A stretch of DNA of 64,000 nt, from NCBI RefSeq assembly GCF_965641715.1, contig NZ_OZ282453.1; one strand, 5' to 3'. This document shows, in pieces, positions 31,361-64,000 of this stretch; position 1 is the stretch's first letter, and each line of letters opens with the position of its first letter. A program made the translations under genes and the position numbers. Source of the DNA: Escherichia coli (GTDB lineage Bacteria > Pseudomonadota > Gammaproteobacteria > Enterobacterales > Enterobacteriaceae). The notes under the pieces are model-generated. The model did not search any database. It was not told where the DNA came from and saw only the letters and a program-made list of their open reading frames with translations.

Positions 31361-31632
31361 TGGTTCAGAATAATTCGTCCTACTCATTCTTCCTCCCCCT
31401 TTTTTAAATACTTTTTCATCTTGTTTCGGACTGTCATGTAATTCGCAAAACGAAGATAAATGTGCTAATCCATCCCATGGAATATCGCCACAATAAAGCA
31501 GGTAATTTTTTGATTTTTACGCCATGATAGAAGTCTGGAAGAAAAAGGCTTTCTGCGATCACAGTCGAGCCGGGCGGGCAAGGCCAAATGCTAAAATAAG
31601 CACAATTTACTGACTCATTTTGAGGTAACGCT

Positions 31633-32019
31633 ATGTACGACAATCTGAAAAGTCTGGGTATTACCAATCCTGAAGAAATTGATCGTTACAGCCTCCGGCA
31701 GGAAGCCAACAACGATATTCTGAAAATCTATTTCCAGAAAGACAAAGGCGAGTTTTTCGCCAAGAGCGTTAAGTTTAAATATCCGCGTCAGCGTAAAACG
31801 GTCGTCGCTGATGGTGTGGGTCAGGGTTATAAAGAAGTCCAGGAAATCAGCCCGAATCTACGGTATATCATTGATGAGCTTGATCAAATCTGCCAGCGTG
31901 ACCGCAGCGAAGTTGATCTTAAGCGTAAGATCCTCGACGACTTACGTCACCTGGAGTCAGTCGTAACCAATAAGATCAGCGAGATTGAAGCCGATCTGGA
32001 AAAACTAACGCGTAAATAA
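31633..32019 (+). CDS. yaeH: YaeH, DUF3461 family protein
   Basis: 128 aa ORF ([19 protein letters not shown]...). Confidence 0.93.
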
Positions 32020-34973: not shown

Positions 34974-36491
34974 TTATTGTTCTACGGCCATCAGACGTCG
35001 GTATTCATCCCACGCATAGAGGTCGGTCATACCGCTGATATAATCCTGCAGCAGGCGGCAACGGTAATAATATTCCCATAGCGGAAACTCAGGAGAATCT
35101 GACGGTAATTTACTGACAGCCTCGACATAGGCCAGCCGATGGCGCGTCGAGAGTTTGTGGAATAAGCGCGATTCAATAGGGAAACGTTTCACCCGTTCTT
35201 TTTCTACCAGTTCAGTAAAGTCTGATAACGACAGGCTTAATAAAGGACGATAAATCTCTAATAATCCGCTAATGACCCGATAGCCCTGCAATTCAAGCTG
35301 CTCGACATCTGGATGGCTAAACACATGTTTTACAGCGACATTTTTATATAGCTTAAGAAGATCGCTGCATTCGCTGGCATCTTCCAATAATGCATGATTA
35401 AACGTTCCGGCGAAAATCGCAGGCAGATTATCAATAAATCGTTGTGCCGCGTAGGGTACCAGTTTATTTAGGGTGTTTACCCGTAAATACATAAAAAACT
35501 GATCTTCCGTACTGCGGCTTAAACTATTTGAGCGTGATTTTTCCCAGGCATTTTCAACCACCAGCGAAAAGAGCGAACCTTTCTCATGCTGGCCCCACGC
35601 CTCGTGCAAATGATGATAAAGCTGCTCAACGGTAAATATTCTTTTCTCTACCGCATCTTCAAGATCTGCCACACAATAGGAGATGTCGTCGGCAGCTTCC
35701 ATAATCCACGTTAATGGAAAACGACTGTAAAGCGCCAAATTAAGTTCTTTACGCAACCGGGCAATATAGGCTTCTTCAGAAAGATAATAACCCGGCTTTT
35801 TCATTAAATAGTGATGTGTCTCAGGCGTTTCGCCACGCCACCACGCTGGACGGGTATATTTTAAAATACCGCCAACCTGCGCCCAGGTGAGATTCATCCG
35901 CATCAATGTATGCACCAGACGAATGCCTTGTGCATTCCCCTCAAAATGACATAAGTCCTGACGAATCTTGCGCCGCAGCTCGTTAAGCGGTTCTTCCCCG
36001 TCCCGTAAACGTAGTGCCGCCACGCTGCAGCGATCGTCAGTCAGAGGCTGGCTTTCGGCATCTTCCGGGTGCAAACGTTGGCGAAACCAGTCATTTATCG
36101 CCGCTTCGCCAAAATGACCAAACGGCGGATTGCCGATATCGTGCATCAGGCATGACATCTCAACAATGCTTTCAAAAGGTCCGGTCAGTTCATCCAGGCC
36201 GTATGCTTCCAGTAATTTAAGCTCTTTCAGACGGCTTAAAATTTCTTTGGCGATGTAGCGCCCCACCTGCTGGACTTCCATCGAGTGGGTAAGACGCGTG
36301 CGCACGGCGGCATTGCGCTCCAGTGGAAAAACCTGGGTCTTTTGTTGCAGACGACGAATTGCCGGAGAGTTGATGATACGCCCGCGATCGCTCTCGAAGA
36401 TCCGCAGGATCTCATGTTCGGTTTTAACGCCCTGCGGTGAACGGTAACGACGATGCCAGTTTATTTTTTTTCGGAAATCAATCTGTGCCAT
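34974..36491 (-). CDS. dgt: dGTP triphosphohydrolase
   Basis: 505 aa ORF, HD-domain dGTPase. Confidence 0.96.
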
Positions 36492-47606: not shown

Positions 47607-50141
47607 TTAATTACTACCAAACATATCCTTAATCCAACCGGCTACACCGTCGCTATCTTTCTGCTCTTGCTGAGCAGGTTGCTGTTGCGGCTGTTGCTGC
47701 GGCTGTGAAGACTGATCAAACGGGTTGCCTGACGGCTGCTGCTGCATCTCACTCTGCTGGCACAGCGATTGCGGATCGCTGGTCCAGACCGGCAAGACAC
47801 GCATGCCACCGCTGCAAACAAAGTTGCCGTCGTAGTCCACGCCCATATCTGCAATATCTTCTGGCGGAACAAGATTCAGCGGCGTTGGCGTCTGGTTAGC
47901 CAGATAACGCTGATAAATCGACATTGCCCCGCTGGCACCATACAGTTTGGTCGGCTGGTTGTTATCACGGCCTACCCAGGTGATGGTCACCGTGCTGCCG
48001 TCAATGCCCGCAAACCAGGTATCTACGTTATTGTTGGTAGTCCCTGTTTTCCCTGCCAGATGCAGGTTCGGGTATTTCGCCCCAAGCTGACGACCCGTAC
48101 CACGTTGTACCACCTGCTGCATGGTCCATAGTGTCAGATACGCCGCCTGCGCCGGAACAGCGCGTTCCGCCTGCGGGAAGCTCTGATACAGCACTTTGCC
48201 ATCTTCCGCGATTACCGAACGCAGCGCAGAAAGCGGTGCACGGTTACCGCCGCTGGCGATGGTCTGGAATGCCTGCGCCACTTCGATTGGCGTTAAGTTC
48301 AACGCCCCCAGCAGCATCGCCGGAACCGGATGCAGCTGATCTTTCGGCACGCCCAGTTTAATCCAGGTATCCGTAACCGCAGGCAGCCCCAGCGCCATCC
48401 CCAGATTTACCGTCGGCACGTTCATCGAACGGGTCAACGCATCCACCAGCATCACTCTGCCGCTTTCGCTATAACGACGGTCATCGTTCTGCGGTGACCA
48501 GACCTGGCCATTCGGCTGACGTAGCGCGATTGGCGCATCCGCAATCCACGTATTCAGACGATAGATTTTCGGCTGGCTTAAGGCCGTCAGATAAGTCGCT
48601 GGTTTTGCAAGGGAACCAATCGAACGACGCGCCTGCATCGCACGGTTGTAGCCCGCAAACTGCGGCTCAGAACCTCCGACCATCGCACGAACTTCACCAC
48701 TAAAGCGGTCGACGACCACAATCGCGGTTTCCAGATCGCTCAGCTTACGCTGTTTCTTAAGTGCCGGAATGCCTTCCACGGCGGCTTTTTCTGCCGCGTC
48801 CTGGGCCACCGAGTCAAAGGTAGTGAAGATCTTCACGCCGGAGAGATCTTTTACCTTATCGCCTAATTTAGCCTGAAGCTCCTGACGCACCAGTTGCATA
48901 AAGGCTGGCTGAGGAGAGATCACCCCACCGCGCGGCTGAACACCCAGCGGACGCGCACTCAACATGTCATAGAGTTCTTGATCAATAATCTGTTGCTGTT
49001 GCAGCAGACGCAGTACCAGATTACGTCGCTCCAGCGCCAGTTTCGGGTTACGCCACGGGTTGTAGATGGACGCTCCTTTCACCATACCGACTAACAGCGC
49101 CTGTTGATCGAGGCTCAATTCTTCTACCGGGCGACCAAAGTAATACAAGCTCGCCAGCGGGAAGCCGCGGATTTCGTTGTCGCCGCTCTGACCGAGATAC
49201 ACCTCGTTCATATACAGCTCAAGAATACGGTCTTTGCTGTAACGCGCGTCCATGATCAGCGCCATGTAAGCTTCGTTCGCTTTACGCCAGTAAGAGCGCT
49301 CGCTGGAGAGGAACAGGTTTTTCACCAGCTGTTGCGTCAGCGTACTCGCCCCCTGCACCGTGCGTCCGGCTGTCAGGTTTGCCAGCACCGCACGTCCGAT
49401 GGAGTAGAGACTGATTCCATCATGCTCGTAGAAATGGCGGTCTTCTGTCGCCAGCAAAGTATCCACCAGCAAATCCGGGAAACCACTGCGCGGCACAAAC
49501 AAACGCTGCTCACCGTTTGGTGAGGAGATCATGGTGATCAGACGCGGATCAAGACGGAAGAAACCGAACTGACGGTTGTTCTCCATATTGACGATCGTCG
49601 CCAAATGATCGCCATCAAAGGTCAGACGCGCGCGCACCTGTCCTTCTTTACTGTCCGGGAAATCAAACGGACGGCGAATCATCTCAATGCTGTTGGCCTG
49701 CACGGTAAATTCGCCAGGACGGGTCATTTTTGACACCTGACGATACTGGGTTGCCTCCAGCAGCTTCACCATTTCGTTCTTGCTGATGGTCATGTCTGGC
49801 TCAAGGTTGACCATTCGACCATAAACTGCCGCAGGCAGTTGCCAGACCTTGCCATCAATACGGCTACGAATTTTTTGATCGAGATAAACGCCGTAAATGG
49901 CGATCAGCACGGCAAAAACGATAGCCAGTTTTAACAGCAGCCATAGCCAGCCGCGTTTGCCACGAGGCTTACGCCCTTTGCCTTTGCCCTTACCTTTGCG
50001 CGGCATCGGTTCTTCATCCTCATAGTCATCATAATCGTCGTAATCATCGTCATCTTCGTAACGACGACGGCTTACCTTTTGTTTGACCGGACGCGTCGGT
50101 TTCCCTTTGCGTCCAATTGGCTCGCGGTCATTCCCGGCCAT
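47607..50141 (-). CDS. mrcB: Penicillin-binding protein 1B (bifunctional glycosyltransferase/transpeptidase)
   Basis: 844 aa from [15 protein letters not shown]...; acidic [15 protein letters not shown] and (KG)n N-terminal tract, TM helix, SxxK transpeptidase domain. Confidence 0.96.
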
Positions 50142-50235
50142 GCTTTTTCTCCGCAATATTCAGGCGCAAAAGCCCGATTTTCTGTTCTTCTGTTGCAAGA
50201 CAGAAGAAGATATCTCTCAAAATTTGAGCTCGATC

Positions 50236-50330
50236 GGTCCCCTCTCCCTTAAGGGAGAGGGTTAGGGTGAGGGTGAACGTGCGCGCTGATGCCCTCACCC
50301 CGGCCCTCTCCCACAGGGAGAGGGAGAAAA
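50236..50330. repeat. Box C-type compound palindromic intergenic repeat
   Basis: ccctctccc ttaa gggagaggg; gggtgagggtgaa ... gccctcaccc; ccctctccc aca gggagaggg: three nested inverted repeats in 95 bp between the hrpB stop and mrcB start. Confidence 0.7.
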
Positions 50331-50336
50331 CCAACC

Positions 50337-52766
50337 TTACGAATACTTTTTCGTCCGTCGCGTCGGTGCCGTGTTTGCCGGGTCGTCCGGCCAGACGTGT
50401 TTGGGATAACGCCCTTTCATCTCCTTTTGCACCTCACGATACGCCCCTTTCCAGAAGGCCCCCAAATCACGCGTGATTTGCAGCGGCCTTTGGGCAGGGG
50501 AAAGCAACTCCAGCACCAGCGGCACGCGCCCCTGGGCGATCGTCGGATTGGTGGCCTCACCAAACATCTCCTGCATTCTCACCGCCAGCGCGGGCGGGTT
50601 ATCTTCATGATAACGAATGGCGATCCGGCTTCCCGTCGGCACAGTGTAATGCGCAGGCAATTCACTATCCAGACGTTGCTGCATTCCCCAATCAAGTAAT
50701 CCGCGTAGTGCCTGATAAATGTCGAGTGATTTCAGGCCGCGTAGTGAATGTACACCGGCCATATGTGGCAGCAGCCACGTTTCCAGCGTCGCCAACAAAC
50801 TTTCATCATCAACCGCTGGCCAGTCATATTCTGGCAACCACTTTCCGGCGCATAACAAACGCAAGCGTAGCTGTTCCGCTTCCGCCGTCCAGTTGAGCAC
50901 GCTTAAACCTTTATCACGGATGCCGTTAAGCATCGCCTGATGCAACTCGTCTTCTGACGGTTTCGCCAACGGCTGCACTTTCACCGTCAACTGACCGATT
51001 TGCAGCCGACGCCAGGCTTTCAGCGTACCTTGCGCGTCATCCCATTCCACGGTGTCAGATTGCTGCACCAGCTGCGGACAGCGTCGCACTAATTCATCAA
51101 TATCGACCGGTAGCGCCAGTAAAATCCGCGCATCCGGCGAGGCGCTGCCCTGCAATAATAACGGTGCGATCAACCATTCGTGGCGGCTTAGCGCGTCGTC
51201 GGCATCGAGCATCGCTCCCATGCCGTTTGCCAGTTGATAGCGTCCATCTTGCCCACGGCGGCGAGCAATGCGATCGGCAAACGCCCCGGCAAGTAGCGGC
51301 GCGATAAGCGAACTGTCTGCCTCACCGCCGCGTACGTTTAAGCGTTTTAACAGTTGCTGACTACGTTGCTGCCAGGCTGGTTGATTGCGCGAAAACGCCA
51401 CGCCCAGGTCACTATTGCCCATCCGTGGCGGCTCTTCGAGAATGGCGGCAATTTTTGCCGCGGTAGCAGCTTCGTCGTCGCTCTTTGCGCTAACCAGCAT
51501 TGCCGCTAAACGCGGATCGTTACCCAGCGCTGCCATTTTTTGCCCCTGCGCACTAAGCCGTTCACCGTCCAGCGCCCCCAGCATCTTTAACAGGCGTTTC
51601 GCGGCCAGTAAATTCACTGCTGGCGGTTGATCCAGCCAGCTCATCTGCGCCGGATCGCTGCATCCCCATTGCAGTAATTCCATCAACAAACCGGAAAGAT
51701 CGCTTTGTAATATTTCCGGTTCACTTTGCGCCGCGGCGCGTTCTGCTTGTTCCTTGGCGATTAAATGCAGGCAGATACCCGGCTCCAGACGCCCGGCGCG
51801 CCCGGCACGCTGCGTCATCGACGCCTGACTGATTCGCTGAGTAATCAACCGCGTAAGCCCTGTTCGCGGATCAAAACGCGCCACCCTTTCCTGGGCACAA
51901 TCCACCACCAGACGAATACCTTCGATGGTTAAACTGGTTTCAGCAATATTGGTCGCCAGCACCACTTTGCGCATCCCTTGCGGTGCCGGGAGGATCGCTT
52001 TTCGCTGATCGTTCAGCGACAACGCGCCATACAGCGGGCAGAGCAACACATCACTGCCGATGCGCGAAGCCAGTTGTTCCTGCACACGCTGAATTTCTCC
52101 GACGCCAGGTAAAAATAACAGTAATGATCCACTTTCCTGACGCAGCATTTCGGCGGTGGCAACCGCGACGGCTTCGTCAAAACGCTGATGCGCGGGCAGC
52201 GGTAAATAACGGCGTTCAACCGGAAACGAGCGCCCTTCTGAGATGACGACGGGCGCTTCTGGCAGCATTTGCTGCAAGCGGTCGTTATCCAGCGTAGCCG
52301 ACATAATCAGCAGTTTAAGGTCATCACGCAGACCTTGTTGCACATCGAGTAACAGCGCCAACGCCAAATCCGCCTGCAAGCTGCGCTCATGAAATTCATC
52401 AAGGATCACCAGTCCAACACCGCTCAGTTCCGGGTCACGCTGGATCATCCGCGTCAGCACGCCTTCGGTAACCACTTCCAGGCGGGTATTCGGCCCGACG
52501 CAGTTTTGCGCACGCATCCGGTAGCCAACGGTATCGCCTGGCTTTTCGTTAAGCAGCTCCGCCAGCCGTTGCGCGACGTTACGCGCCGCCAGACGCCGTG
52601 GCTCCAGCAGGATAATTTTCCCGTTAATGCCGGGATGCGCCAGCAGTTGCAGCGGCAGCCAGGTTGATTTCCCGGCCCCGGTCGGCGCACTTAATAATAC
52701 CTGCGGCGCACAATCGAGAGCGGTAAGTAATTCAGGTAAGACGGCAGCAACGGGCAACGACGACAC
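50337..52766 (-). CDS. hrpB: ATP-dependent RNA helicase HrpB (DEAH-box)
   Basis: ORF 50337..52811; probable GTG start giving ~809 aa; Walker A APTGAGKST and DEFH motif. Confidence 0.92.
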   Translation of the reverse strand: MSSLPVAAVLPELLTALDCAPQVLLSAPTGAGKSTWLPLQLLAHPGINGKIILLEPRRLAARNVAQRLAELLNEKPGDTVGYRMRAQNCVGPNTRLEVVTEGVLTRMIQRDPELSGVGLVILDEFHERSLQADLALALLLDVQQGLRDDLKLLIMSATLDNDRLQQMLPEAPVVISEGRSFPVERRYLPLPAHQRFDEAVAVATAEMLRQESGSLLLFLPGVGEIQRVQEQLASRIGSDVLLCPLYGALSLNDQRKAILPAPQGMRKVVLATNIAETSLTIEGIRLVVDCAQERVARFDPRTGLTRLITQRISQASMTQRAGRAGRLEPGICLHLIAKEQAERAAAQSEPEILQSDLSGLLMELLQWGCSDPAQMSWLDQPPAVNLLAAKRLLKMLGALDGERLSAQGQKMAALGNDPRLAAMLVSAKSDDEAATAAKIAAILEEPPRMGNSDLGVAFSRNQPAWQQRSQQLLKRLNVRGGEADSSLIAPLLAGAFADRIARRRGQDGRYQLANGMGAMLDADDALSRHEWLIAPLLLQGSASPDARILLALPVDIDELVRRCPQLVQQSDTVEWDDAQGTLKAWRRLQIGQLTVKVQPLAKPSEDELHQAMLNGIRDKGLSVLNWTAEAEQLRLRLLCAGKWLPEYDWPAVDDESLLATLETWLLPHMAGVHSLRGLKSLDIYQALRGLLDWGMQQRLDSELPAHYTVPTGSRIAIRYHEDNPPALAVRMQEMFGEATNPTIAQGRVPLVLELLSPAQRPLQITRDLGAFWKGAYREVQKEMKGRYPKHVWPDDPANTAPTRRTKKYS

Positions 52767-52839
52767 AAAACGCTCCAGAGGGTTAACATTCTTCGCGCCA
52801 CATTGTAGCATCGCGGTAATTCATAACCGAGTGCCTCAC

Positions 52840-54089
<1,250 letters not shown>

Positions 54090-54266
54090 TAAAGTAAGTA
54101 ACTGGTTAATTTACATTCTGGTCGCGTGCGCAAATACGCTTTTCCTCACACAGTTGTCAAGTGTTACGTTTAGATAATTGCTATCCGGAAAAGCATCTGC
54201 TATTTATAGCGGCCTCATTTTTCCCCCGAACATGGGGATCGATAGTGCGTGTTAAGGAGAAGCAAC

Positions 54267-54722
54267 ATGCAAGAAGGGCAAAACCGTAAAACATCGTCCC
54301 TGAGTATTCTCGCCATCGCTGGGGTGGAACCATATCAGGAGAAGCCGGGCGAAGAGTATATGAATGAAGCCCAGCTGGCGCACTTCCGTCGTATTCTGGA
54401 AGCATGGCGTAATCAACTCAGGGATGAAGTCGATCGCACCGTTACACATATGCAGGATGAAGCAGCCAACTTCCCGGACCCGGTAGACCGTGCAGCCCAG
54501 GAAGAAGAGTTCAGCCTCGAACTGCGTAACCGCGATCGCGAGCGTAAGCTGATCAAAAAGATCGAGAAGACGCTGAAAAAAGTGGAAGACGAAGATTTCG
54601 GCTACTGTGAATCCTGCGGTGTTGAAATTGGTATTCGCCGTCTGGAAGCGCGCCCGACAGCCGATCTGTGCATCGACTGCAAAACGCTGGCTGAAATTCG
54701 CGAAAAACAGATGGCTGGCTAA
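54267..54722 (+). CDS. dksA: RNA polymerase-binding transcription factor DksA
   Basis: 151 aa from [19 protein letters not shown]...; C4 zinc finger [25 protein letters not shown]. Confidence 0.96.
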
Positions 54723-54748
54723 TTACAGCCGTTCCATCACGTTTACCA

Positions 54749-54780
54749 CAGGCGGGAAATGCTCCCGCCTTATTTTTTGT
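54749..54780 (+). terminator. Rho-independent terminator downstream of dksA
   Basis: ggcggga aatgc tcccgcc perfect 7-bp stem followed by ttattttttgt. Confidence 0.8.
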
Positions 54781-54788
54781 TCAAAGAG

Positions 54789-55685
54789 ATGACAGACACA
54801 CACTATATTGGCCGCTTCGCCCCCTCTCCTTCCGGCGAGCTTCATTTTGGTTCTCTGATTGCTGCGCTTGGCAGCTATTTGCAGGCTCGCGCCCGGCAAG
54901 GTCGCTGGCTGGTACGCATAGAAGATATCGACCCGCCTCGTGAAGTTCCCGGTGCCGCAGAAACTATCCTGCGCCAGCTGGAACATTACGGCCTGCACTG
55001 GGACGGCGATGTTCTCTGGCAATCGCAACGTCACCACGCCTATCGCGAAGCACTCGCCTGGTTACATGAGCAAGGACTAAGTTATTACTGCACCTGCACG
55101 CGTGCACGTATTCAAAGCATTGGCGGTATTTACGACGGCCATTGCCGGGAATTGCATCATGGACCAGGCAACGCCGCAGTGCGTATCCGCCAGCAGCATC
55201 CGGTCACCCAGTTTACTGACCTGCTGCGCGGCATTATTCACGCCGACGAAAAACTGGCACGGGAAGATTTTATTATTCATCGCCGTGATGGTTTGTTTGC
55301 CTATAACCTGGCGGTGGTGGTCGATGATCACTTCCAGGGCGTGAGCGAAATTGTCCGCGGGGCAGATTTGATCGAACCGACAGTGCGGCAAATCTCGCTG
55401 TACCAGCTTTTTGGCTGGAAAGTGCCAGATTACATTCATCTGCCGCTGGCGCTTAATCCACAAGGCGCTAAACTTTCCAAGCAGAATCATGCGCCTGCGT
55501 TGCCGAAAGGCGATCCACGCCCGGTACTAATCGCGGCACTTCAATTTCTGGGGCAGCAGGCAGAAGCACACTGGCAGGATTTCAGCGTCGAGCAAATCCT
55601 TCAGTCAGCCGTCAAAAACTGGCGGCTTACCGCAGTGCCTGAGTCGGCAATTGTAAATTCAACATTCTCAAATGCGTCATGCTGA
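54789..55685 (+). CDS. gluQ: Glutamyl-Q tRNA(Asp) synthetase (GluQ-RS, YadB)
   Basis: 298 aa from [23 protein letters not shown]... (class I aaRS HIGH-like motif); the ATG at 54759 lies inside the dksA terminator loop so the start is placed at 54789 behind aaagag SD. Confidence 0.9.
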
Positions 55686-55744
55686 GCTATGATTAGCCGC
55701 TATTTTTTTGTCCTGAATGATGTTTGACACTACCGAGGTGTACT

Positions 55745-57142
55745 ATTTTTACCCGAGTCGCTAATTTTTGCCGCAAGGTGCTAAGCCGCGAGGAAAGCGA
55801 GGCTGAACAGGCAGTCGCCCGTCCACAGGTGACGGTGATCCCGCGTGAGCAGCATGCTATTTCCCGCAAAGATATCAGTGAAAATGCCCTGAAGGTAATG
55901 TACAGGCTCAATAAAGCGGGATACGAAGCCTGGCTGGTTGGCGGCGGCGTGCGCGACCTGTTACTTGGCAAAAAGCCGAAAGACTTTGACGTAACCACTA
56001 ACGCCACGCCTGAGCAGGTGCGCAAACTGTTCCGTAACTGCCGCCTGGTGGGTCGCCGTTTCCGTCTGGCTCATGTGATGTTTGGCCCAGAGATTATCGA
56101 AGTTGCGACCTTCCGTGGACACCACGAAGGTAACGTCAGCGACCGCACGACCTCCCAACGCGGGCAAAACGGCATGTTGCTGCGCGACAACATTTTCGGC
56201 TCCATCGAAGAAGACGCCCAGCGCCGCGATTTCACTATCAACAGCCTGTATTACAGCGTAGCGGATTTTACCGTCCGTGATTACGTTGGCGGTATGAAGG
56301 ATCTGAAGGACGGCGTTATCCGTCTGATTGGTAACCCGGAAACGCGCTACCGTGAAGATCCGGTACGTATGCTGCGCGCGGTACGTTTTGCCGCCAAATT
56401 GGGTATGCGCATCAGCCCGGAAACCGCAGAACCGATCCCTCGCCTCGCTACCCTGCTGAACGATATCCCACCGGCACGCCTGTTTGAAGAATCGCTTAAA
56501 CTGCTACAAGCGGGCTACGGTTACGAAACCTATAAGCTGCTGTGTGAATATCATCTGTTCCAGCCACTGTTCCCGACCATTACCCGCTACTTCACGGAAA
56601 ATGGCGACAGCCCGATGGAGCGGATCATTGAGCAGGTACTGAAGAACACCGATACGCGTATTCATAACGATATGCGCGTTAACCCGGCGTTTTTGTTTGC
56701 CGCCATGTTCTGGTACCCACTGCTGGAGACGGCACAGAAGATCGCCCAGGAAAGCGGCCTGACCTATCACGACGCTTTCGCGCTGGCGATGAACGACGTG
56801 CTGGACGAAGCCTGCCGTTCACTGGCAATCCCGAAACGTCTGACGACGTTAACCCGCGATATCTGGCAGTTGCAGTTGCGTATGTCCCGACGTCAGGGTA
56901 AACGTGCATGGAAACTGCTGGAGCATCCTAAGTTCCGTGCGGCTTATGACCTGTTGGCCTTGCGAGCTGAAGTTGAACGTAACGCTGAACTGCAGCGTCT
57001 GGTGAAATGGTGGGGTGAGTTCCAGGTTTCCGCGCCACCAGACCAAAAAGGGATGCTCAACGAGCTGGATGAAGAACCGTCACCGCGTCGCCGTACTCGT
57101 CGTCCACGCAAACGCGCACCGCGTCGTGAGGGTACCGCATGA
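55745..57142 (+). CDS. pcnB: Poly(A) polymerase I
   Basis: ORF open from stop at 55718; no in-frame ATG before the conserved N-terminus; ATT at 55745 preceded by gaggtg SD is taken as the start (literature-reported AUU start), TTG at 55724 is the alternative; 465 aa. Confidence 0.9.
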
Positions 57143-57618
57143 CAGTGGCGTATATTGCCATAGGCAGCAATCTGGCCTCTCCGCTGGAGCAGGTCAATGC
57201 TGCCCTGAAAGCATTAGGCGATATCCCTGAAAGCCACATTCTTACCGTTTCTTCGTTTTACCGCACCCCACCGCTGGGGCCGCAAGATCAACCCGATTAC
57301 TTAAACGCAGCCGTGGCGCTGGAAACCTCTCTTGCACCTGAAGAGCTACTCAATCACACACAGCGTATTGAATTGCAGCAAGGTCGCGTCCGTAAAGCTG
57401 AACGCTGGGGACCGCGCACGCTGGATCTCGACATCATGCTGTTTGGTAATGAAGTGATAAATACTGAACGACTGACCGTACCGCACTACGATATGAAAAA
57501 TCGTGGATTTATGCTGTGGCCGCTGTTTGAAATCGCGCCAGAGTTGGTGTTTCCTGATGGGGAAACATTACGTGAAATACTCACTTCACTAGCAGTACCA
57601 CAACCTGCCATCTGGTAA
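57139..57618 (+). CDS. folK: 2-amino-4-hydroxy-6-hydroxymethyldihydropteridine pyrophosphokinase
   Basis: 159 aa ORF ([19 protein letters not shown]...); 4-nt overlap with pcnB. Confidence 0.96.
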
Positions 57619-57960
57619 TAGCTGTATTATTTTATTTTCTTGACGAGAGGAATACAAAATGATACGGCTATTTCATCCACCAAGAAAAAATTATTTTCTT
57701 ATCTTACTCCTCACATCCCCCCTTACACATTAAATATACTTAATTTACATTTTAGTTTTTTTTAATTCATTCATGAAATAGCATTTCATGCAAATAGATT
57801 AGGCATTTTTTGTTTAAACGACCTAAAATAACAACAATTCAATACGCCACATAAATATATTCACACCCGTGATAATTCACCCCTATTACATCCTCCAAAA
57901 ACTTTGAGTAATATCCGCTCGCAATATTAATTTCATATAATTTTTGTAAGGATGCATGTA
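57619..57960. promoter_or_regulatory. AT-rich upstream regulatory region of the yadN fimbrial operon
   Basis: ~340 bp strongly AT-rich with A/T tracts, typical of nucleoid-protein-silenced fimbrial promoters. Confidence 0.5.
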
Positions 57961-58557
57961 ATGAAAAAAGCACTTCTCGCAGCCGCTCTGGTTATGGCTT
58001 CTGGTTCCGCCCTGGCTGTAGATGGTGGTCATATCGACTTTAACGGTATGGTACAGTCCGGTACCTGTAAAGTGGGTGTGGTAGATACTGGTATGCACAG
58101 CGTTACCACTGATGGCGTGGTTACCCTGGATACTGCGAATGTTACTGATACTTTTGCTGAAGTTAGCGCAACTGCTGTCGGTTTACTGCCGAAAGAGTTC
58201 ATGATTTCTGTTGAGTGTGATCCAGGTGCTCCGAAGAATGCTGAGTTAACTATGGGTTCTGCAAGCTACGCGAACACCAGCGGTACCCTGAATAACAATA
58301 TGAACATCACTGTTAACGGTATTGCACCGGCTCAGAACGTAAACATTGCAGTTCATAACATGAAAAACAAAGCTGGCGCTGCTGAAATTAAGCAGGTCCA
58401 TATGAACAACTCTTCTGAAGTTCAGGAACTGACATTAGACGCAGAAGGTAAAGGCCAGTACGTATTTAACGCATCTTACGTTAAAGCACCGAACAGCCCG
58501 GCTGTAACTGCTGGTCATGTAACCACTAACGCGCTGTACACCATTGCTTATAAGTAA
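57961..58557 (+). CDS. yadN: Fimbrial major subunit-like protein YadN
   Basis: signal peptide MKKALLAAALVMASGSALA; type-1 pilin-like with Cys pair and C-terminal ...YTIAYK. Confidence 0.88.
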   Translation: MKKALLAAALVMASGSALAVDGGHIDFNGMVQSGTCKVGVVDTGMHSVTTDGVVTLDTANVTDTFAEVSATAVGLLPKEFMISVECDPGAPKNAELTMGSASYANTSGTLNNNMNITVNGIAPAQNVNIAVHNMKNKAGAAEIKQVHMNNSSEVQELTLDAEGKGQYVFNASYVKAPNSPAVTAGHVTTNALYTIAYK

Positions 58558-58637
58558 TTGATGGTGTGTTGAGCATAAGGTTTGCCAGCAGGCAAACCTT
58601 ATTTTCGCGAATTTAATCTTTCTACAGACAGCAAGGA

Positions 58638-59369
58638 GTGCTTATGTTTCCCTTGGTTAAAAAAACGGTTAGTGCATTATTTGTGAGTACTCTGTTAGCC
58701 AGTGCACCAGCATTCGCTGACATTATTATTTCCGGAACACGTATCATTTATAACGCTGATAAAAAAGATGTTAACGTTCGTCTGGAAAATAAAGGGAATC
58801 GCCCCTTACTGATTCAGAACTGGTTGGATACTGGCGACGACAATGCCGATCCCAGCCAGATCAAAGTGCCGTTTACCGCGACCCCACCAGTTTCACGCGT
58901 GGAGCCAAAACGCGGTCAAACCGTAAAAGTGATGTATACCGGTGCAACAGCCCTGCCGAAAGACCGTGAAAGCGTCTACTGGTTTAACGTGCTGGAAGTG
59001 CCGCCTAAGCCGAAAGATGCTGAGGCTGACAAAAACTTGTTACAGCTGGCTTTCCGCACACGCATCAAACTCTTTTATCGCCCGAGTGGGTTACAGGGAG
59101 AACCGGCTGAAGCACCGGCGAAAATCACCTGGAAATTAAACAACGCTCAGTTACAGGCAAATAACCCAACGCCATATTACGTGTCCTTTAATGAGGTCAA
59201 GCTGGAAAGCGGCGGCAAAACCTACAACGTCAATTCCAGCATGGTCGCGCCGTTCAGCCAGGCAAGCTTTGGCGTAACCGGTCTGCCAGGAAGCGTGTCA
59301 TCCGGAAAAGTGGTTTTTAAAGCGATCAACGACTTTGGCGGCAACATTGATGGTTCCGCAACATTCTAA
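58638..59369 (+). CDS. yadV: Periplasmic pilus chaperone (YadV/EcpD)
   Basis: 243 aa ORF with signal peptide and PapD-like features. Confidence 0.88.
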   Translation: MLMFPLVKKTVSALFVSTLLASAPAFADIIISGTRIIYNADKKDVNVRLENKGNRPLLIQNWLDTGDDNADPSQIKVPFTATPPVSRVEPKRGQTVKVMYTGATALPKDRESVYWFNVLEVPPKPKDAEADKNLLQLAFRTRIKLFYRPSGLQGEPAEAPAKITWKLNNAQLQANNPTPYYVSFNEVKLESGGKTYNVNSSMVAPFSQASFGVTGLPGSVSSGKVVFKAINDFGGNIDGSATF

Positions 59370-59410
59370 AAAATAAACGGATTCTTTTTAACATCGCCAG
59401 GAATGCAACC

Positions 59411-62011
59411 TTGTACCAGTTTACTCATCAAAAAAGCCGTATCCCGAAAAAAACGCTACTTGCGGCCTGTTGCGCCCTTTTTTACAGCGGCAACAGTTCT
59501 GCGGCGGACACCGTGGAATATGACAGTTCCTTCTTAATGGGAACTGGCGCATCAACGATTGATGTTAAACGTTATGCTCAAGGCAACCCGACACCGCCGG
59601 GTCTCTATAATGTCCGCGTGTTTGTAAACGGCCAGCCCACGTCCAGCTTAGAAATTCCGTTTGTGGATATTGGCGAAAACAGCGCAGCGGCCTGTATTAC
59701 CCACAAAAACCTGGCACAACTTCACATTAAGCAACCTGAACAGCCTGTCACTTTACTCGCCAGAGAAGGTGAGGAAGAGGATTGTCTGGATTTGGCAAAG
59801 TCATACGAAAAGGCGGATGTGCGCTTTGACGGTAGTGACCAGTTTCTCGATCTGACGATCCCTCAGGCCTATGTTTTGAAAAGCTATGGCGGCTACGTTG
59901 ACCCTTCTTTATGGGAATCGGGAATTAACGCTGCCACACTGGCATATACCCTGAACGCGTATCACACAAGTTCAGATAACGATAATAGTGACAGCGTCTA
60001 TGGCGCATTTAACTCGGGTATCAATTTAGGAGCCTGGCACTTCCGTGCGCGCGGTAACTATAACTGGACAACAGATAACGGCAGCGATTTCGATTTCCAG
60101 GATCGTTACTTACAGCGTGACATTCCGGCAATCCGTTCACAGATAATTATGGGTGACGCCTACACCACCGGTGAAACGTTTGACTCTGTCAACGTCCGTG
60201 GTGTTCGCCTGTACAGCGATAGCCGTATGCTACCTTCGGCGCTGGCCAGTTACGCCCCGACCATCCGCGGTGTAGCAAACTCCAACGCCAAAGTTACGGT
60301 GACGCAGAACGGTTATAAAATCTATGAAACTACCGTTCCACCCGGTGAATTTGTTATAGACGACATTAGCCCCTCCGGCTTTGGTAGCGAACTGGTCGTA
60401 ACCATTGAAGAAGCGGATGGTTCCAAACGCACCTTTACGCAACCCTTCTCGTCGGTTGTGCAAATGCAACGTCCTGGTGTAGGTCGTTGGGATTTCAGTG
60501 CCGGTAAAGTCATTGATGATAGCCTGCGTTCCGAACCCAATATGGGGCAAGCCTCTTATTACTATGGTCTGAATAACCTCTTCACGGGTTATACCGGCAT
60601 TCAGTTCACCGATAACAACTATCTTGCCGGGCTGTTAGGTGTGGGTATCAACACCAGCATCGGCGCCTTTGCGGTAGACGTTACCCATTCTCGCGCTGAG
60701 ATTCCGGATGATAAAACTTACCAGGGGCAAAGTTATCGCGTGACCTGGAACAAATTATTCCAGGATACCGGGACATCATTTAACCTCGCGGCGTACCGCT
60801 ATTCCACCCAGGATTATCTGGGCCTGCATGATGCGTTAGTCCTCATTGACGACGCCAAACATTTGTCTGCCGATGAAGACAAAAACACCATGCAGACGTA
60901 CTCACGTATGAAAAACCAGTTTACCGTCAGCATCAACCAGCCGCTGAAAACGACTTACGAAGATTACGGTTCACTGTTTATTTCCGGTAGCTGGACGGAT
61001 TACTGGGCGGCGAACAATAGCCGCACTGAATATAATGTTGGTTACAGTAAAAGCGTTTCGTGGGGCAGTTTCAGCGTCAACCTGCAACGTAGCTGGAATG
61101 AAGACGGCGAGAAAGATGACGCGATGTACGTCAGCGTTAGCGTACCTATTGAGAATATTTTAGGTGGCAAACGCAAATCTTCTGGTTTCCGCAATTTAAA
61201 TACTCAGCTCAATACCGATTTCGATGGTTCACATCAGTTGAATGTTAACAGTTCCGGTAACACTGAAAACAATCTGGTGAACTACAGTGTCAACGCAGGT
61301 TATAGCCTCGATAAAAACTCCGGCGATTTAGCCTCTGTTGGTGGTTATCTCAACTATGAATCAGGGTTAGGCGGTATTTCCGCTTCGGCCTCGGCCACTT
61401 CTGATAATAGCCAGCAGTACTCCATCTCCACCGATGGCGGCTTTGTATTACACAGTGGTGGTTTAACGTTCACTAACAACAGTTTCAGCAGTAACGACAC
61501 ACTGGTGTTAATCAACGCCCCAGGTGCTAAAGGCGCACGAATCAATAACAGTAATAACGAAATCGATCGCTGGGGATATGCCGTGACATCTTCTGTCAGC
61601 CCCTACCGTGAAAACCGGGTAGGTCTGAACATTGAAACACTGGAAAACGATGTTGAACTGAAAAGTACCAGCGCCACCACCGTACCACGCAGCGGCTCCG
61701 TTGTTTTGACCCGTTTCGAAACTGACGAGGGGCGTTCTGCCGTGCTGAATATTACTGCCGCCAATGGCAAATCTATTCCGTTTGCTGCGGAGGTTTACCA
61801 GGGTGAGGTGATGATCGGCAGCATGGGCCAGGGTGGTCAGGCATTTGTGCGCGGTATTAACGACAGCGGGGAATTAACAGTGCGTTGGTATGAAAACAAC
61901 CAAACCATTGACTGTAAGTTGCACTACCAGTTCCCAGCCCAGCCACAAACGCTGGGAAGTACCAACACCTTATTACTTAACAATCTTACCTGTCAGGTAG
62001 CAAATCACTAA
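59411..62011 (+). CDS. htrE: Outer-membrane fimbrial usher HtrE
   Basis: 866 aa ORF (tool start is TTG), usher-family barrel; exact start uncertain. Confidence 0.9.
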   Translation: MYQFTHQKSRIPKKTLLAACCALFYSGNSSAADTVEYDSSFLMGTGASTIDVKRYAQGNPTPPGLYNVRVFVNGQPTSSLEIPFVDIGENSAAACITHKNLAQLHIKQPEQPVTLLAREGEEEDCLDLAKSYEKADVRFDGSDQFLDLTIPQAYVLKSYGGYVDPSLWESGINAATLAYTLNAYHTSSDNDNSDSVYGAFNSGINLGAWHFRARGNYNWTTDNGSDFDFQDRYLQRDIPAIRSQIIMGDAYTTGETFDSVNVRGVRLYSDSRMLPSALASYAPTIRGVANSNAKVTVTQNGYKIYETTVPPGEFVIDDISPSGFGSELVVTIEEADGSKRTFTQPFSSVVQMQRPGVGRWDFSAGKVIDDSLRSEPNMGQASYYYGLNNLFTGYTGIQFTDNNYLAGLLGVGINTSIGAFAVDVTHSRAEIPDDKTYQGQSYRVTWNKLFQDTGTSFNLAAYRYSTQDYLGLHDALVLIDDAKHLSADEDKNTMQTYSRMKNQFTVSINQPLKTTYEDYGSLFISGSWTDYWAANNSRTEYNVGYSKSVSWGSFSVNLQRSWNEDGEKDDAMYVSVSVPIENILGGKRKSSGFRNLNTQLNTDFDGSHQLNVNSSGNTENNLVNYSVNAGYSLDKNSGDLASVGGYLNYESGLGGISASASATSDNSQQYSISTDGGFVLHSGGLTFTNNSFSSNDTLVLINAPGAKGARINNSNNEIDRWGYAVTSSVSPYRENRVGLNIETLENDVELKSTSATTVPRSGSVVLTRFETDEGRSAVLNITAANGKSIPFAAEVYQGEVMIGSMGQGGQAFVRGINDSGELTVRWYENNQTIDCKLHYQFPAQPQTLGSTNTLLLNNLTCQVANH

Positions 62012-62012
62012 T

Positions 62013-62573
62013 ATGGAAAATTCTATGAAAAGGATACTACTAACATCCGCGTTAATAGGCCTGGGTTTACCGGCGGTTGGCTCTGCAACAGATCTTAATG
62101 TCGATTTTACGGCCACCGTATTAGCCACCACCTGTACGATAACTATCGTACAAGATGGTGGTCCAGTAGTGACGGGTAGCAACGGTGAATATAGCCTGAC
62201 AATTCCCGATGTTGGCCTGGATAAAGTTGTCACTGGAGATGTTGCAGCTCAAGCCAACTTTAAATTAGTGGCTTCCGATTGCAGCAATGGTTATTCAAAG
62301 ATTTTTACCACACTTACAGGAACAACGGTTTCCGGTAAGTTAATTGTTAATGAAACAACCTCTGGCGCTACGGGTGTGGGTATGGGGATTAAGCGTAGAG
62401 ATACCGCAGACTCGGCTTTCTTTACGCCAAATAATACTGACAAATTTGAATGGAGTACCGATGAGAAAGCTAACGGTGTGCCTCTGACCGTAGCACTGCG
62501 CGAAACAACGGCAGGAGCAGGACGCACTGGTGCGTTTCAGGCAAAAGCCACCTTTAACTTCACCTACGAATAA
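62013..62573 (+). CDS. yadM: Fimbrial-like protein YadM
   Basis: 186 aa ORF with signal peptide and pilin-like C-terminus ...FNFTYE. Confidence 0.85.
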   Translation: MENSMKRILLTSALIGLGLPAVGSATDLNVDFTATVLATTCTITIVQDGGPVVTGSNGEYSLTIPDVGLDKVVTGDVAAQANFKLVASDCSNGYSKIFTTLTGTTVSGKLIVNETTSGATGVGMGIKRRDTADSAFFTPNNTDKFEWSTDEKANGVPLTVALRETTAGAGRTGAFQAKATFNFTYE

Positions 62574-62587
62574 CAGGGACAGCCACC

Positions 62588-63199
62588 ATGAAATTAAAAG
62601 TCATAGCTACACTGATTGCTACTGTTGCCGTGGGTGCCAGCGTTAGCAACAATCTCACTTATGCGAGTACGACATCCGCCTCTTTAACCGTAAACAGTAA
62701 CCTGACTATGGGTACCTGTAGTGCGAAGGTAGTGGATACCAGTGGTGCCGTGATCGACACCGTTGTCTTGGGCAATGTTTATATTTCTGAACTGGCAGCC
62801 AAAAGCAAGGTGCAACCATTTAAAATCCGCTTCAGCGATTGTGCCGGGCTTCCAGGAAAGAGTGCTCAACTCGTCTTAGCGCCCAAAAACAACGGTTGCG
62901 CAGGAGGCATGTCTGACACTGCCGCCTTTTCAAATAAACTCAACACCACCACCGATGGTGGTTCAAGCAGAGCAGCAGTCGAAGTATGGACGACTACAAG
63001 CCCCGAAGGAACTGGCAGTGAGCAATTCAATTGTTATCAGCGAAACGTCATCAATGTCGATCTTTCTAATGCCAGCACAACACAGCCTTATGATTTCGAT
63101 TTAAGCGCGCGAATGATTATCGCTGGCGGGTGGACAGTCAATGACGTATTACCGGGTAGATTCCTCTCTCCTACGACTTTCACAATCACTTATCAGTAA
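62588..63199 (+). CDS. yadL: Fimbrial-like protein YadL
   Basis: 203 aa ORF with signal peptide, C-terminal ...FTITYQ. Confidence 0.85.
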   Translation: MKLKVIATLIATVAVGASVSNNLTYASTTSASLTVNSNLTMGTCSAKVVDTSGAVIDTVVLGNVYISELAAKSKVQPFKIRFSDCAGLPGKSAQLVLAPKNNGCAGGMSDTAAFSNKLNTTTDGGSSRAAVEVWTTTSPEGTGSEQFNCYQRNVINVDLSNASTTQPYDFDLSARMIIAGGWTVNDVLPGRFLSPTTFTITYQ

Positions 63200-63219
63200 T
63201 AGCGGATAAGGATATTAGA

Positions 63220-63810
63220 ATGCTATGCAGGCATCATAAATTTGTACGTTTTTTGGGGCTGGCAACAGCCCTCATTACGCCTTTTGCCTATGCTGGCCAG
63301 GATGTGGATCTCACGGCGCAGATTGTGGCCAGCACCTGTCAGGTGGAAGTCAGTAATAATGGCGTTGTCGATCTCGGCACAGTGACGCTGGACTATTTTG
63401 CTGACAATGTGACCCCAACGACGGATTACGCGGGTGGCAAAACGTTTAATGTTAATGTGGTCTCTTGCGATAACATTCAAACGACACAGTCGCAAATGAA
63501 ATTAGATTTTCAGCCGCAGGCGGGATCGCTTGCACAGGTGAATAATCAAATTTTTAGTAATGAATACGAACAGCAGGCTACCGGGGCGAAAAACGTCGGC
63601 ATTGTGATATTTTCGGCCCAACCGAATCAGCAGACATTTAACGTGCGAGGAACAGATGGTTCCTCAGCAGCAATTTATTCGGTCGCGCCTGGCAATGCTG
63701 TTCCCTCAACCTGGACCTTTTATTCCCGTATGCAGCGGGTGAATAATGCCCTTCCTCCTGAATCGGGAATGGTGAGAAGCCAGGTTATTGTTAACGTATC
63801 TTACGAATAA
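63220..63810 (+). CDS. yadK: Fimbrial-like protein YadK
   Basis: 196 aa ORF with signal peptide, C-terminal ...VNVSYE. Confidence 0.85.
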   Translation: MLCRHHKFVRFLGLATALITPFAYAGQDVDLTAQIVASTCQVEVSNNGVVDLGTVTLDYFADNVTPTTDYAGGKTFNVNVVSCDNIQTTQSQMKLDFQPQAGSLAQVNNQIFSNEYEQQATGAKNVGIVIFSAQPNQQTFNVRGTDGSSAAIYSVAPGNAVPSTWTFYSRMQRVNNALPPESGMVRSQVIVNVSYE

Positions 63811-63821
63811 TAAGGATAATT

Positions 63822-64000
63822 ATGCAAAGGAAAGGCAATAGACTGTTGATTCAGTTATGCAGTGCGATACTGCTATTTTTTACCACATCCTGGTATGCAT
63901 TGGCGAATGAATGTTATATAGAGAGAAATGCTGAAGGGCCTTATGATATGGTGATAAACCCAAAGCCCTTCAGTATACAGTCAGCGATGGTCACAGTCCC
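63822..64000 (+). CDS. yadC: Fimbrial adhesin-like protein YadC (3' truncated by window end)
   Basis: ATG at 63822 behind aaggataatt SD; open frame MQRKGNRLLIQLCSAILLFFTTSWYA... runs to the window end; identity inferred from K-12 gene order. Confidence 0.6.
   Translation, partial: MQRKGNRLLIQLCSAILLFFTTSWYALANECYIERNAEGPYDMVINPKPFSIQSAMVTV

Follow-up and report, generated by a model that had tools for sequence, protein, structure and literature searches.

In Escherichia coli, the chaperone-usher fimbrial clusters found between folK and panB were all grouped as 'Yad' by Wurpel et al. in 2013, who regarded Yad as core-associated and as the counterpart of Salmonella Sta at this locus (PMC3559732). 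The usher has been assigned to the gamma-4 clade (PMC11287998, PMC7098969). A stricter definition sets a minimum of 80% both for the identity of the usher to HtrE and for the share of its length over which this holds, and it requires a YadC-type adhesin. This definition scores phylogroup E as Yad-negative (PMC13245861), while other groups study 'Yad' in O157:H7. The O157:H7 allele comprises Z0146-Z0152 (ECs0139-ECs0145), designated 'Yad' fimbrial locus 2. Expression of ECs0139-0145 in E. coli results in thin flexible fimbriae, and heterologous O157 Yad brought no gain in adhesion to HeLa, MDCK or Caco2 cells or in biofilm formation (PMC7098969). The O157 yad genes are transcribed from the native promoter as three units, are needed for robust gut colonisation and form the top-expressed fimbrial locus in ethanolamine-supplemented medium (PMC11287998). 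In K-12 and extraintestinal pathogenic (ExPEC) strains, yad is repressed by H-NS and induced by serum, and D-xylose is cited as a ligand of YadC (PMC13245861). For the YadC of CFT073, annexin A2 has been named as host receptor (PMC6921372).

The window analysed here is a 64-kb stretch of E. coli DNA (64,000 nucleotides) whose right end lies in a fimbrial operon. We read this region, with a probability of roughly 0.85, as the O157:H7-type allele of the yad (Salmonella sta-like) gamma-4 chaperone-usher operon at its ancestral folK-panB site, for which silencing, attenuation and cassette exchange are proposed. The operon is a real, ordinary and already-described fimbrial feature that opens no long-standing question, and the practical value of the analysis lies in labelling it correctly. 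The names YadN, HtrE and YadC imply that K-12/ExPEC results on ligands, on serum induction and on a mapped promoter region under H-NS control can be transferred, yet these results are hypotheses at best for the operon described here because its promoter region and adhesin class differ.

Layout and allelic identity of the operon

The folK gene ends at position 57618, and the ORF listing has six uninterrupted open reading frames downstream of it followed by the start of a seventh gene at 63822, all on the + strand. The genes encode, in order, a major pilin, a PapD-like chaperone, an usher, three minor pilins and the start of a tip adhesin, and the Pfam and NCBIfam domains together with this order uphold the first-pass annotation, which had proposed a chaperone-usher fimbrial operon at the yad position. 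Three of the reading frames as listed begin further 5' than the genes, at 57952 (gene at 57961), 58638 (58644) and 62013 (62025). The same annotation held the reading frames to be intact, and comparison with the O157:H7 orthologues revealed no frameshifts or internal stops in the six complete genes. Five of the six match their orthologues in length (198, 241, 866, 182 and 196 aa), while the fifth reading frame, for minor pilin L, encodes 203 rather than 201 aa.

It is conceivable, though unlikely, that the cluster is cryptic and decaying and that the source strain no longer makes the fimbriae. The near-identical operon of E. coli A30 is annotated with three pseudogenes (one internal stop and two frameshifts), which may reflect decay of the allele in some strains or errors of assembly. 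In other strains IS1 or IS3 insertions lie within the locus, and in the window the promoter signals are weak and the adhesin gene is visible for only 59 codons before the sequence ends. Against decay, none of the six complete genes is disrupted, signal peptides, Cys pairs and C-terminal Tyr motifs are in place, and apart from the 2 residues by which L differs their lengths are those of O157 genes that assemble fimbriae on expression (PMC7098969).

At the nucleotide level the operon is about 96% identical to that of O157:H7 and 99.4% identical to that of A30. Amino acid identity to O157 forms a mosaic along the operon (nucleotide identity in parentheses): 99.5% (99.5%) for the major pilin N, 99% (99.3%) for the chaperone V, 98% (96.4%) for the usher, 92% (92.2%) for M, 66% (71%) for L and 96% (95.3%) for K. 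The two loci share their site, gene order, gene lengths (L excepted) and an AT-rich upstream region, and they differ most visibly in L, M and the N-terminus of the adhesin (76% aa identity), in a 58-bp upstream indel and in a hairpin stem that is mismatched in O157.

The K-12 yad operon is the positional orthologue at folK-panB, likewise a seven-gene gamma-4 operon in which an AT-rich leader precedes the genes and a hairpin follows the one for the major pilin. Its proteins, however, are only 40% (YadN), 61% (YadV), 61% (HtrE), 49% (YadM), 42% (YadL) and 41% (YadK) identical to those encoded here, beside a PcnB that is 100% identical to K-12, and in megablast comparisons with K-12-like strains folK was the sole part that matched. 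The upstream regions cannot be aligned, and the adhesin, as judged from its A30 counterpart, is of a different class. These differences make it highly improbable that the region is a canonical K-12-type yadN-yadV-htrE-yadMLKC operon to which K-12/ExPEC knowledge, including the YadC ligands, would transfer directly, and at the level of sequence a K-12 identity is already refuted. This is so even though the chromosomal position and gene order are the same, the NCBIfam models passed by the chaperone, the usher and the YadK-position protein extend to the K-12 proteins too, and Wurpel et al. put every cluster at the locus under 'Yad' (PMC3559732). In that broad sense, defined by the folK-panB site, the N-V-usher-M-L-K-C order and an HtrE-family usher, the O157:H7-type operon is Yad, its left flank and six-plus genes lying in the window. 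By the strict definition it is not: with 61-63% identity to K-12 HtrE the usher falls below the 80% level of PMC13245861, and the A30 adhesin, which serves as proxy for a window adhesin seen to residue 59, is not of the YadC type. The Yad gene names given in the first pass are therefore right as to position and order but misleading as to the proteins, which are only 40-61% identical to K-12 and belong to an allele of the O157:H7 type.

Leader, hairpin and control of transcription

Directly behind folK lies an AT-rich intergenic region (57619..57960, + strand) that is presumed to hold the promoter, 5' UTR and a silencer-binding region. A sharp shift to AT-rich DNA over about 340 bp had been noticed beforehand, and it spans 342 bp at 28.9% GC. 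The lowest 300-bp window of the whole 64 kb (28.3% GC) falls within this leader, which has 11 A/T tracts of at least 4 bases, whereas the rest of the window averages 3.0 per 342 bp. The leader is 79% identical to its O157 counterpart, the 58-bp indel lying between them, and it is unalignable with the region upstream of K-12 yadN. The best sigma-70-like matches in the leader are weak (9/12 for 57800-57829), a perfect TATAAT at 57936 is accompanied by a poor -35 element, and a consensus promoter scan returned one weak promoter-like site, fewer than expected from shuffled sequence. An Rfam scan of 57000-64000 at E values up to 1 matched no RNA family, in the leader or beyond it.

The leader has the AT-richness of an H-NS-silenced (xenogeneic-like) promoter region. 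A search of it for the high-affinity 10-bp H-NS motif TCGATAAATT, allowing up to two mismatches, found no match and so lends no sequence-specific support to H-NS binding. The published H-NS data concern K-12/ExPEC alleles, which have upstream DNA that does not align with this leader, and silencing of the O157-type allele is something that we infer by analogy. Judging from the family, transcription would start within the 342-bp region, and the leader would probably be largely silenced by H-NS-type nucleoid proteins until environmental or host cues release it. No sign of a fimS-like phase switch was found, as a recombinase reading frame is absent and the sole inverted repeat in the leader is imperfect (24 nt, 75% complementarity). 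Type 1 (fim), P (pap) and Lpf pili share their assembly machinery with the system described here, whose predicted two-domain adhesin resembles LpfD and FimH, but the operon in the window differs from theirs in usher clade and in having no adjoining invertible promoter element, recombinase or dedicated regulator genes.

Stem-loops behind the gene for the major subunit are familiar in type 1 (fim), P (pap) and Lpf-type operons. Folding identified such a structure after the major pilin gene (58575..58606, + strand), a terminator- or attenuator-like hairpin with a 12-bp perfect stem, an AGCA loop and a T-run; the corresponding stem in O157 is mismatched. The 103-nt stretch that contains it has a folding energy of -30.4 kcal/mol (z = -3.7), which none of 200 shuffled sequences equalled. 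A consensus terminator scan called no terminator, and it missed this hairpin because the T-run is interrupted. A comparable hairpin and T-run occupies the equivalent site in the K-12, E69, E. albertii, E. whittamii, Pseudocitrobacter and C. werkmanii alleles, with stem sequences that are unrelated between alleles, so that the structure is kept and the sequence is not. In the proposed mechanism, the hairpin would cause the message for the major pilin to exceed that for the assembly genes.

Assembly proteins, minor pilins and tip adhesin

The major pilin subunit at the YadN/StaA position (57961..58557, + strand, 198 aa, Pfam Fimbrial) carries a signal peptide, a Cys36-Cys86 pair and a penultimate Tyr, and these three features recur in all four complete pilins. 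Its top NCBIfam model is StaA (E = 1e-46), at 159 bits against a cut-off of 230. The periplasmic chaperone at the YadV/EcpD position (58644..59369, + strand, 241 aa) has both Ig-like domains (PapD_N, 2.3e-45; PapD_C, 1e-19) and scores 420 bits with NCBIfam PRK09926, above the cut-off of 285. The outer-membrane usher at the HtrE position (59411..62011, + strand, 866 aa) starts with TTG and has the N-terminal, pore and C-terminal domains (PapC_N, Usher at 2e-157 and 526 bits, and PapC_C). At 1564 bits with NCBIfam PRK09828 (cut-off 830) it belongs to the HtrE family, and it is 90% identical to the E. albertii usher and 81% to that of WEM25. Subunits would cross the inner membrane via Sec and be folded and capped by the chaperone, after which the usher would polymerise them through donor-strand exchange; the resulting fibre would be thin and flexible and would bear the three minor pilins and, at its tip, a two-domain adhesin.

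Minor pilin M, at the YadM/StaD position (62025..62573, + strand, 182 aa, Pfam Fimbrial 8e-16), has StaD as its top NCBIfam model (3e-47, 161 bits against a cut-off of 228). The hypervariable minor pilin L, at the YadL/StaE position (62588..63199, + strand, 203 aa), has no Pfam match at 1e-3 and matches the NCBIfam StaE/YadL models at E = 1.7e-83, yet it stays under every equivalog cut-off (StaE, 279 against 414 bits). L is 99% identical to its counterpart in A30 and 95% to that in E1V33, and the allele occurs at 99% identity or more in 24 of 5426 genomes. Minor pilin K, at the YadK position (63220..63810, + strand, 196 aa, Pfam Fimbrial 1.5e-9), scores 274 bits with NCBIfam PRK15262, above the cut-off of 132. 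Models from Salmonella Sta (staABCDEFG) thus come first for the major and two minor pilins, but all three equivalog cut-offs are missed, in a comparison made through models and the literature only; a locus pattern scan did not retrieve the Salmonella sta locus.

The tip-adhesin gene is represented by its first 59 codons (63822..64000, + strand), the rest lying beyond the end of the window. The translated N-terminus differs at 1 of 59 residues from the 370-aa adhesin of A30, and the E1V33 adhesin has the same N-terminal residues as that of A30. Taken as a proxy for the window's own protein, which is seen to residue 59, the A30 adhesin models as a two-domain adhesin (pLDDT 75) whose top fold matches in the PDB are LpfD, FimH, CupB6 and CfaE; by sequence it matched nothing meaningful among PDB chains, the fold comparison alone being informative. 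The 412-aa YadC of K-12 is 26% identical to this proxy over the C-terminal pilin domain only, and the lectin domains have no similarity. Variability within the operon is highest in minor pilin L and the adhesin. An earlier remark that receptors and inducing signals are poorly defined is partly outdated in view of the reports on H-NS, serum, ethanolamine, colonisation and D-xylose, although the YadC ligand data concern a different class of adhesin from the one here and any receptor specificity of the O157-type allele would have to be inferred.

The folK-panB slot across genomes

Of 5426 complete E. coli genomes, 435 have DNA of the window-type usher, O157:H7, O55:H7 and O145:H28 among them, and the K-12-type family has matches in 4747 of the 5426; by one allele or another, the locus is filled in nearly all E. 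coli. In the near-identical A30 and E1V33 loci and in O157, panB lies 3' of the operon, and the folK-operon-panB synteny extends to E. albertii, E. whittamii, Pseudocitrobacter, Citrobacter and Superficieibacter. The usher in the window clusters with other ushers of the folK-panB locus in a tree that is incongruent with the species tree.

The first-pass annotation singled the block out as horizontally acquired or accessory, and the profile of GC content and codon usage that it proposed as a check does set the operon apart. At 47.6% GC the operon is the lowest 6-kb block of the window (52.7% for 1-57618), and its GC3 of 0.39-0.53 lies below the 0.55-0.60 or so of most flanking genes. Together with the 28.9% GC of the leader, the restriction of the allele to about 8% of E. 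coli genomes and the discordant usher tree, this could point to a recently acquired foreign genomic island beside folK. Such an origin is nonetheless improbable, as a seven-gene operon occupies the same slot across Escherichia, Citrobacter, Pseudocitrobacter and Superficieibacter and some allele fills it in nearly all E. coli. The ORF listing of the window has no IS or integrase genes, a tRNA scan of 50000-64000 found none, and a repeat search gave short chance-level repeats without island borders, flanking repeats or a convincing invertible element. The label of acquired or accessory DNA is misleading for this locus, which on the sequence evidence is not a recent island but one that varies by allele exchange.

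The left boundary has no insertion junction and consists of a gradual fall in identity inside folK. In a sliding comparison with K-12, identity stays at 95-100% as far as about 57545, some 70 nt inside the gene, and then drops to 66%, 50% and 36%, so that the folK 3' end (57545..57618, + strand) marks the start of the allele-specific segment. The FolK protein is 92.5% identical to that of K-12, with the differences clustered at its C-terminal end. The folK gene is only 91-95% identical to that of most E. coli, and a cryptic Escherichia clade was considered as the source and rejected, PcnB being identical to K-12. The low identity of folK arises because part of the gene belongs to the variable segment; over 24 kb of flank, the best matches in the collection, O157:H7 and O55:H7 among them, reach 99.0-99.2% identity.

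At the population level, deeply divergent alleles would swap as a cassette by homologous recombination, with a left crossover zone inside the folK 3' end. We are evenly divided on the broader proposal that the folK-panB slot is a long-lived multi-allelic fimbrial cassette, with at least four usher lineages in E. coli-named strains that could be maintained or reshuffled by recombination with a left crossover in the essential folK gene and with mosaicism of L and the adhesin in addition. If it is correct, the published 'Yad-negative' calls for phylogroups D and E would be threshold artefacts, and the YadC receptor data would be inapplicable to about 8% of E. coli, including O157:H7. The locus shows that a fimbrial operon may count as 'core-associated' and yet conceal deep replacement of alleles. 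The usher lineages of E. coli-named strains (the window/O157, K-12, E69 and MOD1-EC7003 types) are as distant from one another (58-63% aa) as the ushers of different genera.

Gene content and base composition

The folK gene ends at 57618 and is followed by an AT-rich leader (57619-57960) of 342 bp with a GC content of 28.9%, versus 52.7% in the rest of the window. The lowest 300-bp window of the entire 64 kb (28.3% GC) falls in this leader, which contains 11 A/T tracts of at least four bases against an average of 3.0 in equally long stretches elsewhere. Six complete genes and the beginning of a seventh, all on the plus strand, lie behind it. These encode a major pilin (N, 57961-58557; Pfam Fimbrial), a chaperone (V, 58644-59369; PapD_N and PapD_C), an usher (59411-62011; PapC_N, Usher and PapC_C), and the minor pilins M (62025-62573; Fimbrial), L (62588-63199) and K (63220-63810; Fimbrial), followed by a tip-adhesin gene beginning at 63822, of which the window contains just the first 59 codons. 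The L pilin has no Pfam match at 1e-3, Fimbrial included; NCBIfam StaE/YadL models hit it at E = 1.7e-83, with scores under the cut-offs of all five sub-models. Every pilin of the operon has a signal peptide, a cysteine pair and a penultimate C-terminal tyrosine. The six complete genes are uninterrupted, with gaps of 11-86 bp between genes. In systems of this kind, the PapD-like chaperone binds subunits exported through Sec, and the usher polymerises them by donor-strand exchange, with the tip adhesin leading.

At 47.6% GC, the operon (57961-64000) is the lowest 6-kb coding block of the window; the minimum 6-kb window, which includes the leader, has 46.7% GC. GC3 in the operon is 0.39-0.53, versus 0.55-0.60 in most neighbouring genes. 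The first-pass annotation, which had described a switch to AT-rich sequence after folK and a chaperone-usher fimbrial operon with intact reading frames, was correct on these points, and base composition is not uniform with that of the flanks. Only two other low-GC spots occur in the window, an intergenic region (31351-31700, 39% GC) preceding a 128-aa ORF and a 505-aa ORF (34974-36491, GC3 0.48). By the conserved gene order they are presumably core genes (yaeH and dgt) and not accessory DNA.

Relationship to the K-12 and O157:H7 alleles

The window is E. coli: its PcnB matches the K-12 protein at 100% identity, and a 24-kb flanking stretch reaches 99.0-99.2% identity with the top hits in the collection, O157:H7 and O55:H7 among them. 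The operon occupies exactly the position of yadN-yadV-htrE-yadMLKC in K-12, and the first-pass annotation had named its genes accordingly. The implied identity with K-12 Yad was mistaken. Amino acid identities to the K-12 proteins are only 40% for YadN, 61% for YadV, 61% for HtrE, 49% for YadM, 42% for YadL and 41% for YadK, and in K-12-like genomes megablast matches folK alone, so the K-12-type allele was rejected. Identity to the O157:H7 allele (Z0146-Z0152 / ECs0139-0145) is about 96% at the nucleotide level, and the best nucleotide match is strain A30 (99.4%). By these identities, the operon is the allele found in O157:H7. In the annotation of the A30 copy (L001 6562-11802), the major pilin gene has an internal stop and two minor pilin genes are frameshifted; these lesions may reflect true decay or mistakes in the assembly. 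The window copy is intact.

Usher DNA of this type is found in 435 of 5426 complete E. coli genomes, including O157:H7 (EDL933, 86-24, Xuzhou21), O55:H7 and O145:H28. The K-12-type family matches 4747 of the 5426, and a third type occurs in strain WEM25, whose usher is 81% identical in amino acids to that of the window. From these counts, almost every E. coli genome has the slot between folK and panB filled, and the window allele is in the minority.

The operon is an ordinary feature, already known in O157:H7 as the 'Yad' (locus 2) cluster. A table for strain Crooks lists it in place of the K-12-type cluster at this site (PMC3032704, Table 5). The sole friction in the literature is that phylogroup E has been scored as lacking Yad whereas other groups work on 'Yad' in O157:H7. 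With 80% identity to HtrE as its cut-off, a 2026 survey found 0% of phylogroup E and 5% of phylogroup D to be Yad-positive (PMC13245861), a discrepancy explained by an usher identity to K-12 HtrE of 61-63%, which is under that cut-off.

Age, divergence and mosaicism of the locus

The order pcnB-folK-[seven genes]-panB recurs in several taxa (pattern scan with each species represented by one genome; tblastn table). Usher identity to the window, from ungapped alignment (tblastn best-segment values are 1-2 points lower), is 99% in Escherichia sp. E1V33, 90% in E. albertii, 72% in a Pseudocitrobacter MAG, 71% in E. whittamii, and 65% in both Citrobacter portucalensis and Superficieibacter electus. 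No tRNA, IS, integrase or border repeats were found around the operon, and Wurpel et al. (PMC3559732) classed Yad among the "core-associated" fimbriae and equated it with Salmonella Sta, which has the same position. The shared arrangement, the lack of mobility genes and this classification together indicate that the fimbrial locus is old. In Enterobacter spp., Klebsiella oxytoca, Citrobacter gillenii and relatives (loci L013, L014, L017-L019, L021, L023-L026 and L053), panB directly follows folK and the related fimbrial operon, whose usher has 46-50% identity, is found on the far side of panB; the position of the operon relative to the pan genes thus varies between genera.

Strains named E. 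coli carry at least four lineages of usher (window/O157, K-12, E69 and MOD1-EC7003). These lineages are 58-63% identical to one another, as distant as the Citrobacter and Superficieibacter ushers, and the usher neighbour-joining tree is discordant with the species tree. What is unusual about the locus is this depth of allele divergence. The left edge of divergence lies inside the essential gene folK, where identity to K-12 is 95-100% until about 57545 and then drops to 66%, 50% and 36% in a sliding comparison. The C-terminal end of FolK (the last ~70 nt, 57545-57618) is therefore allele-dependent, while PcnB upstream is fully conserved.

Compared with O157, the N, V and usher proteins are 98-99.5% identical, M 92% and K 96%, L just 66% and the adhesin N-terminus 76%. 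Among the complete genes of the operon L varies most, and just 24 of the 5426 genomes carry this L allele at 99% identity or above. E. whittamii (L006 8532-15625) combines an usher and major pilin of the window-type clade (71-74% identical) with a K-12-class adhesin of 412 aa ending in FQITYP. The operon is thus itself mosaic within the window-type clade. We infer that alleles have replaced one another at this conserved slot through homologous recombination, with the L pilin and the adhesin possibly under diversifying pressure. The suggestion of horizontal acquisition in the first-pass annotation was imprecise in that the locus itself is old, syntenic across genera and free of mobility genes; it would apply to the allele.

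Adhesin, leader and transcription

The 370-aa A30 adhesin differs from the window at one of the first 59 residues, and its predicted structure (mean pLDDT 75) best matches the two-domain adhesins LpfD, FimH, CupB6 and CfaE. The predicted lectin domain spans roughly residues 30-200. Its identity to YadC is 26% and confined to the pilin domain, so the ligands reported for YadC cannot be assumed for the window-type adhesin. Expression of ECs0139-0145 from Ptet yields thin, flexible fimbriae (PMC7098969). The native O157 locus comprises three transcription units, changes T3SS and Shiga toxin gene expression, and is required for robust gut colonisation (PMC11287998).

A 58-bp leader segment (57635-57693) is present in the window and A30 and missing from O157:H7. 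A short direct repeat (TTATTTTCT) borders it, which fits a slippage-type indel. An imperfect inverted repeat (57667-57782; 24-nt arms, 75% complementary, 68 nt apart) is probably a chance occurrence in AT-rich DNA; no recombinase gene lies nearby. H-NS represses yad in K-12, CFT073 and EC958 (PMC13245861). The leader is not alignable with those of the H-NS-repressed alleles, the high-affinity H-NS motif was not found in it, and promoter scans gave weak candidates only, with putative -10 elements at 57824 and 57936. We infer from its composition, which is compatible with H-NS silencing, that the leader may be silenced in this way.

Directly 3' of the major pilin gene is a perfect 12-bp hairpin followed by a T-run (58575-58606). 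The consensus terminator scan did not detect this hairpin; a 103-nt stretch containing it folds at -30.4 kcal/mol (z = -3.7). The O157:H7 hairpin differs by a stem mismatch (-18.1 versus -24.8 kcal/mol). An equivalent hairpin and T-run with an unrelated stem sequence occupies the same site in the K-12, E69, E. albertii, E. whittamii, Pseudocitrobacter and C. werkmanii alleles, and conservation of structure without conservation of sequence argues that the hairpin is functional. Most likely it would cause partial termination or stabilise the message, thereby setting how much major pilin is made relative to the assembly proteins, a role that fits the multiple transcription units reported for the O157 locus.
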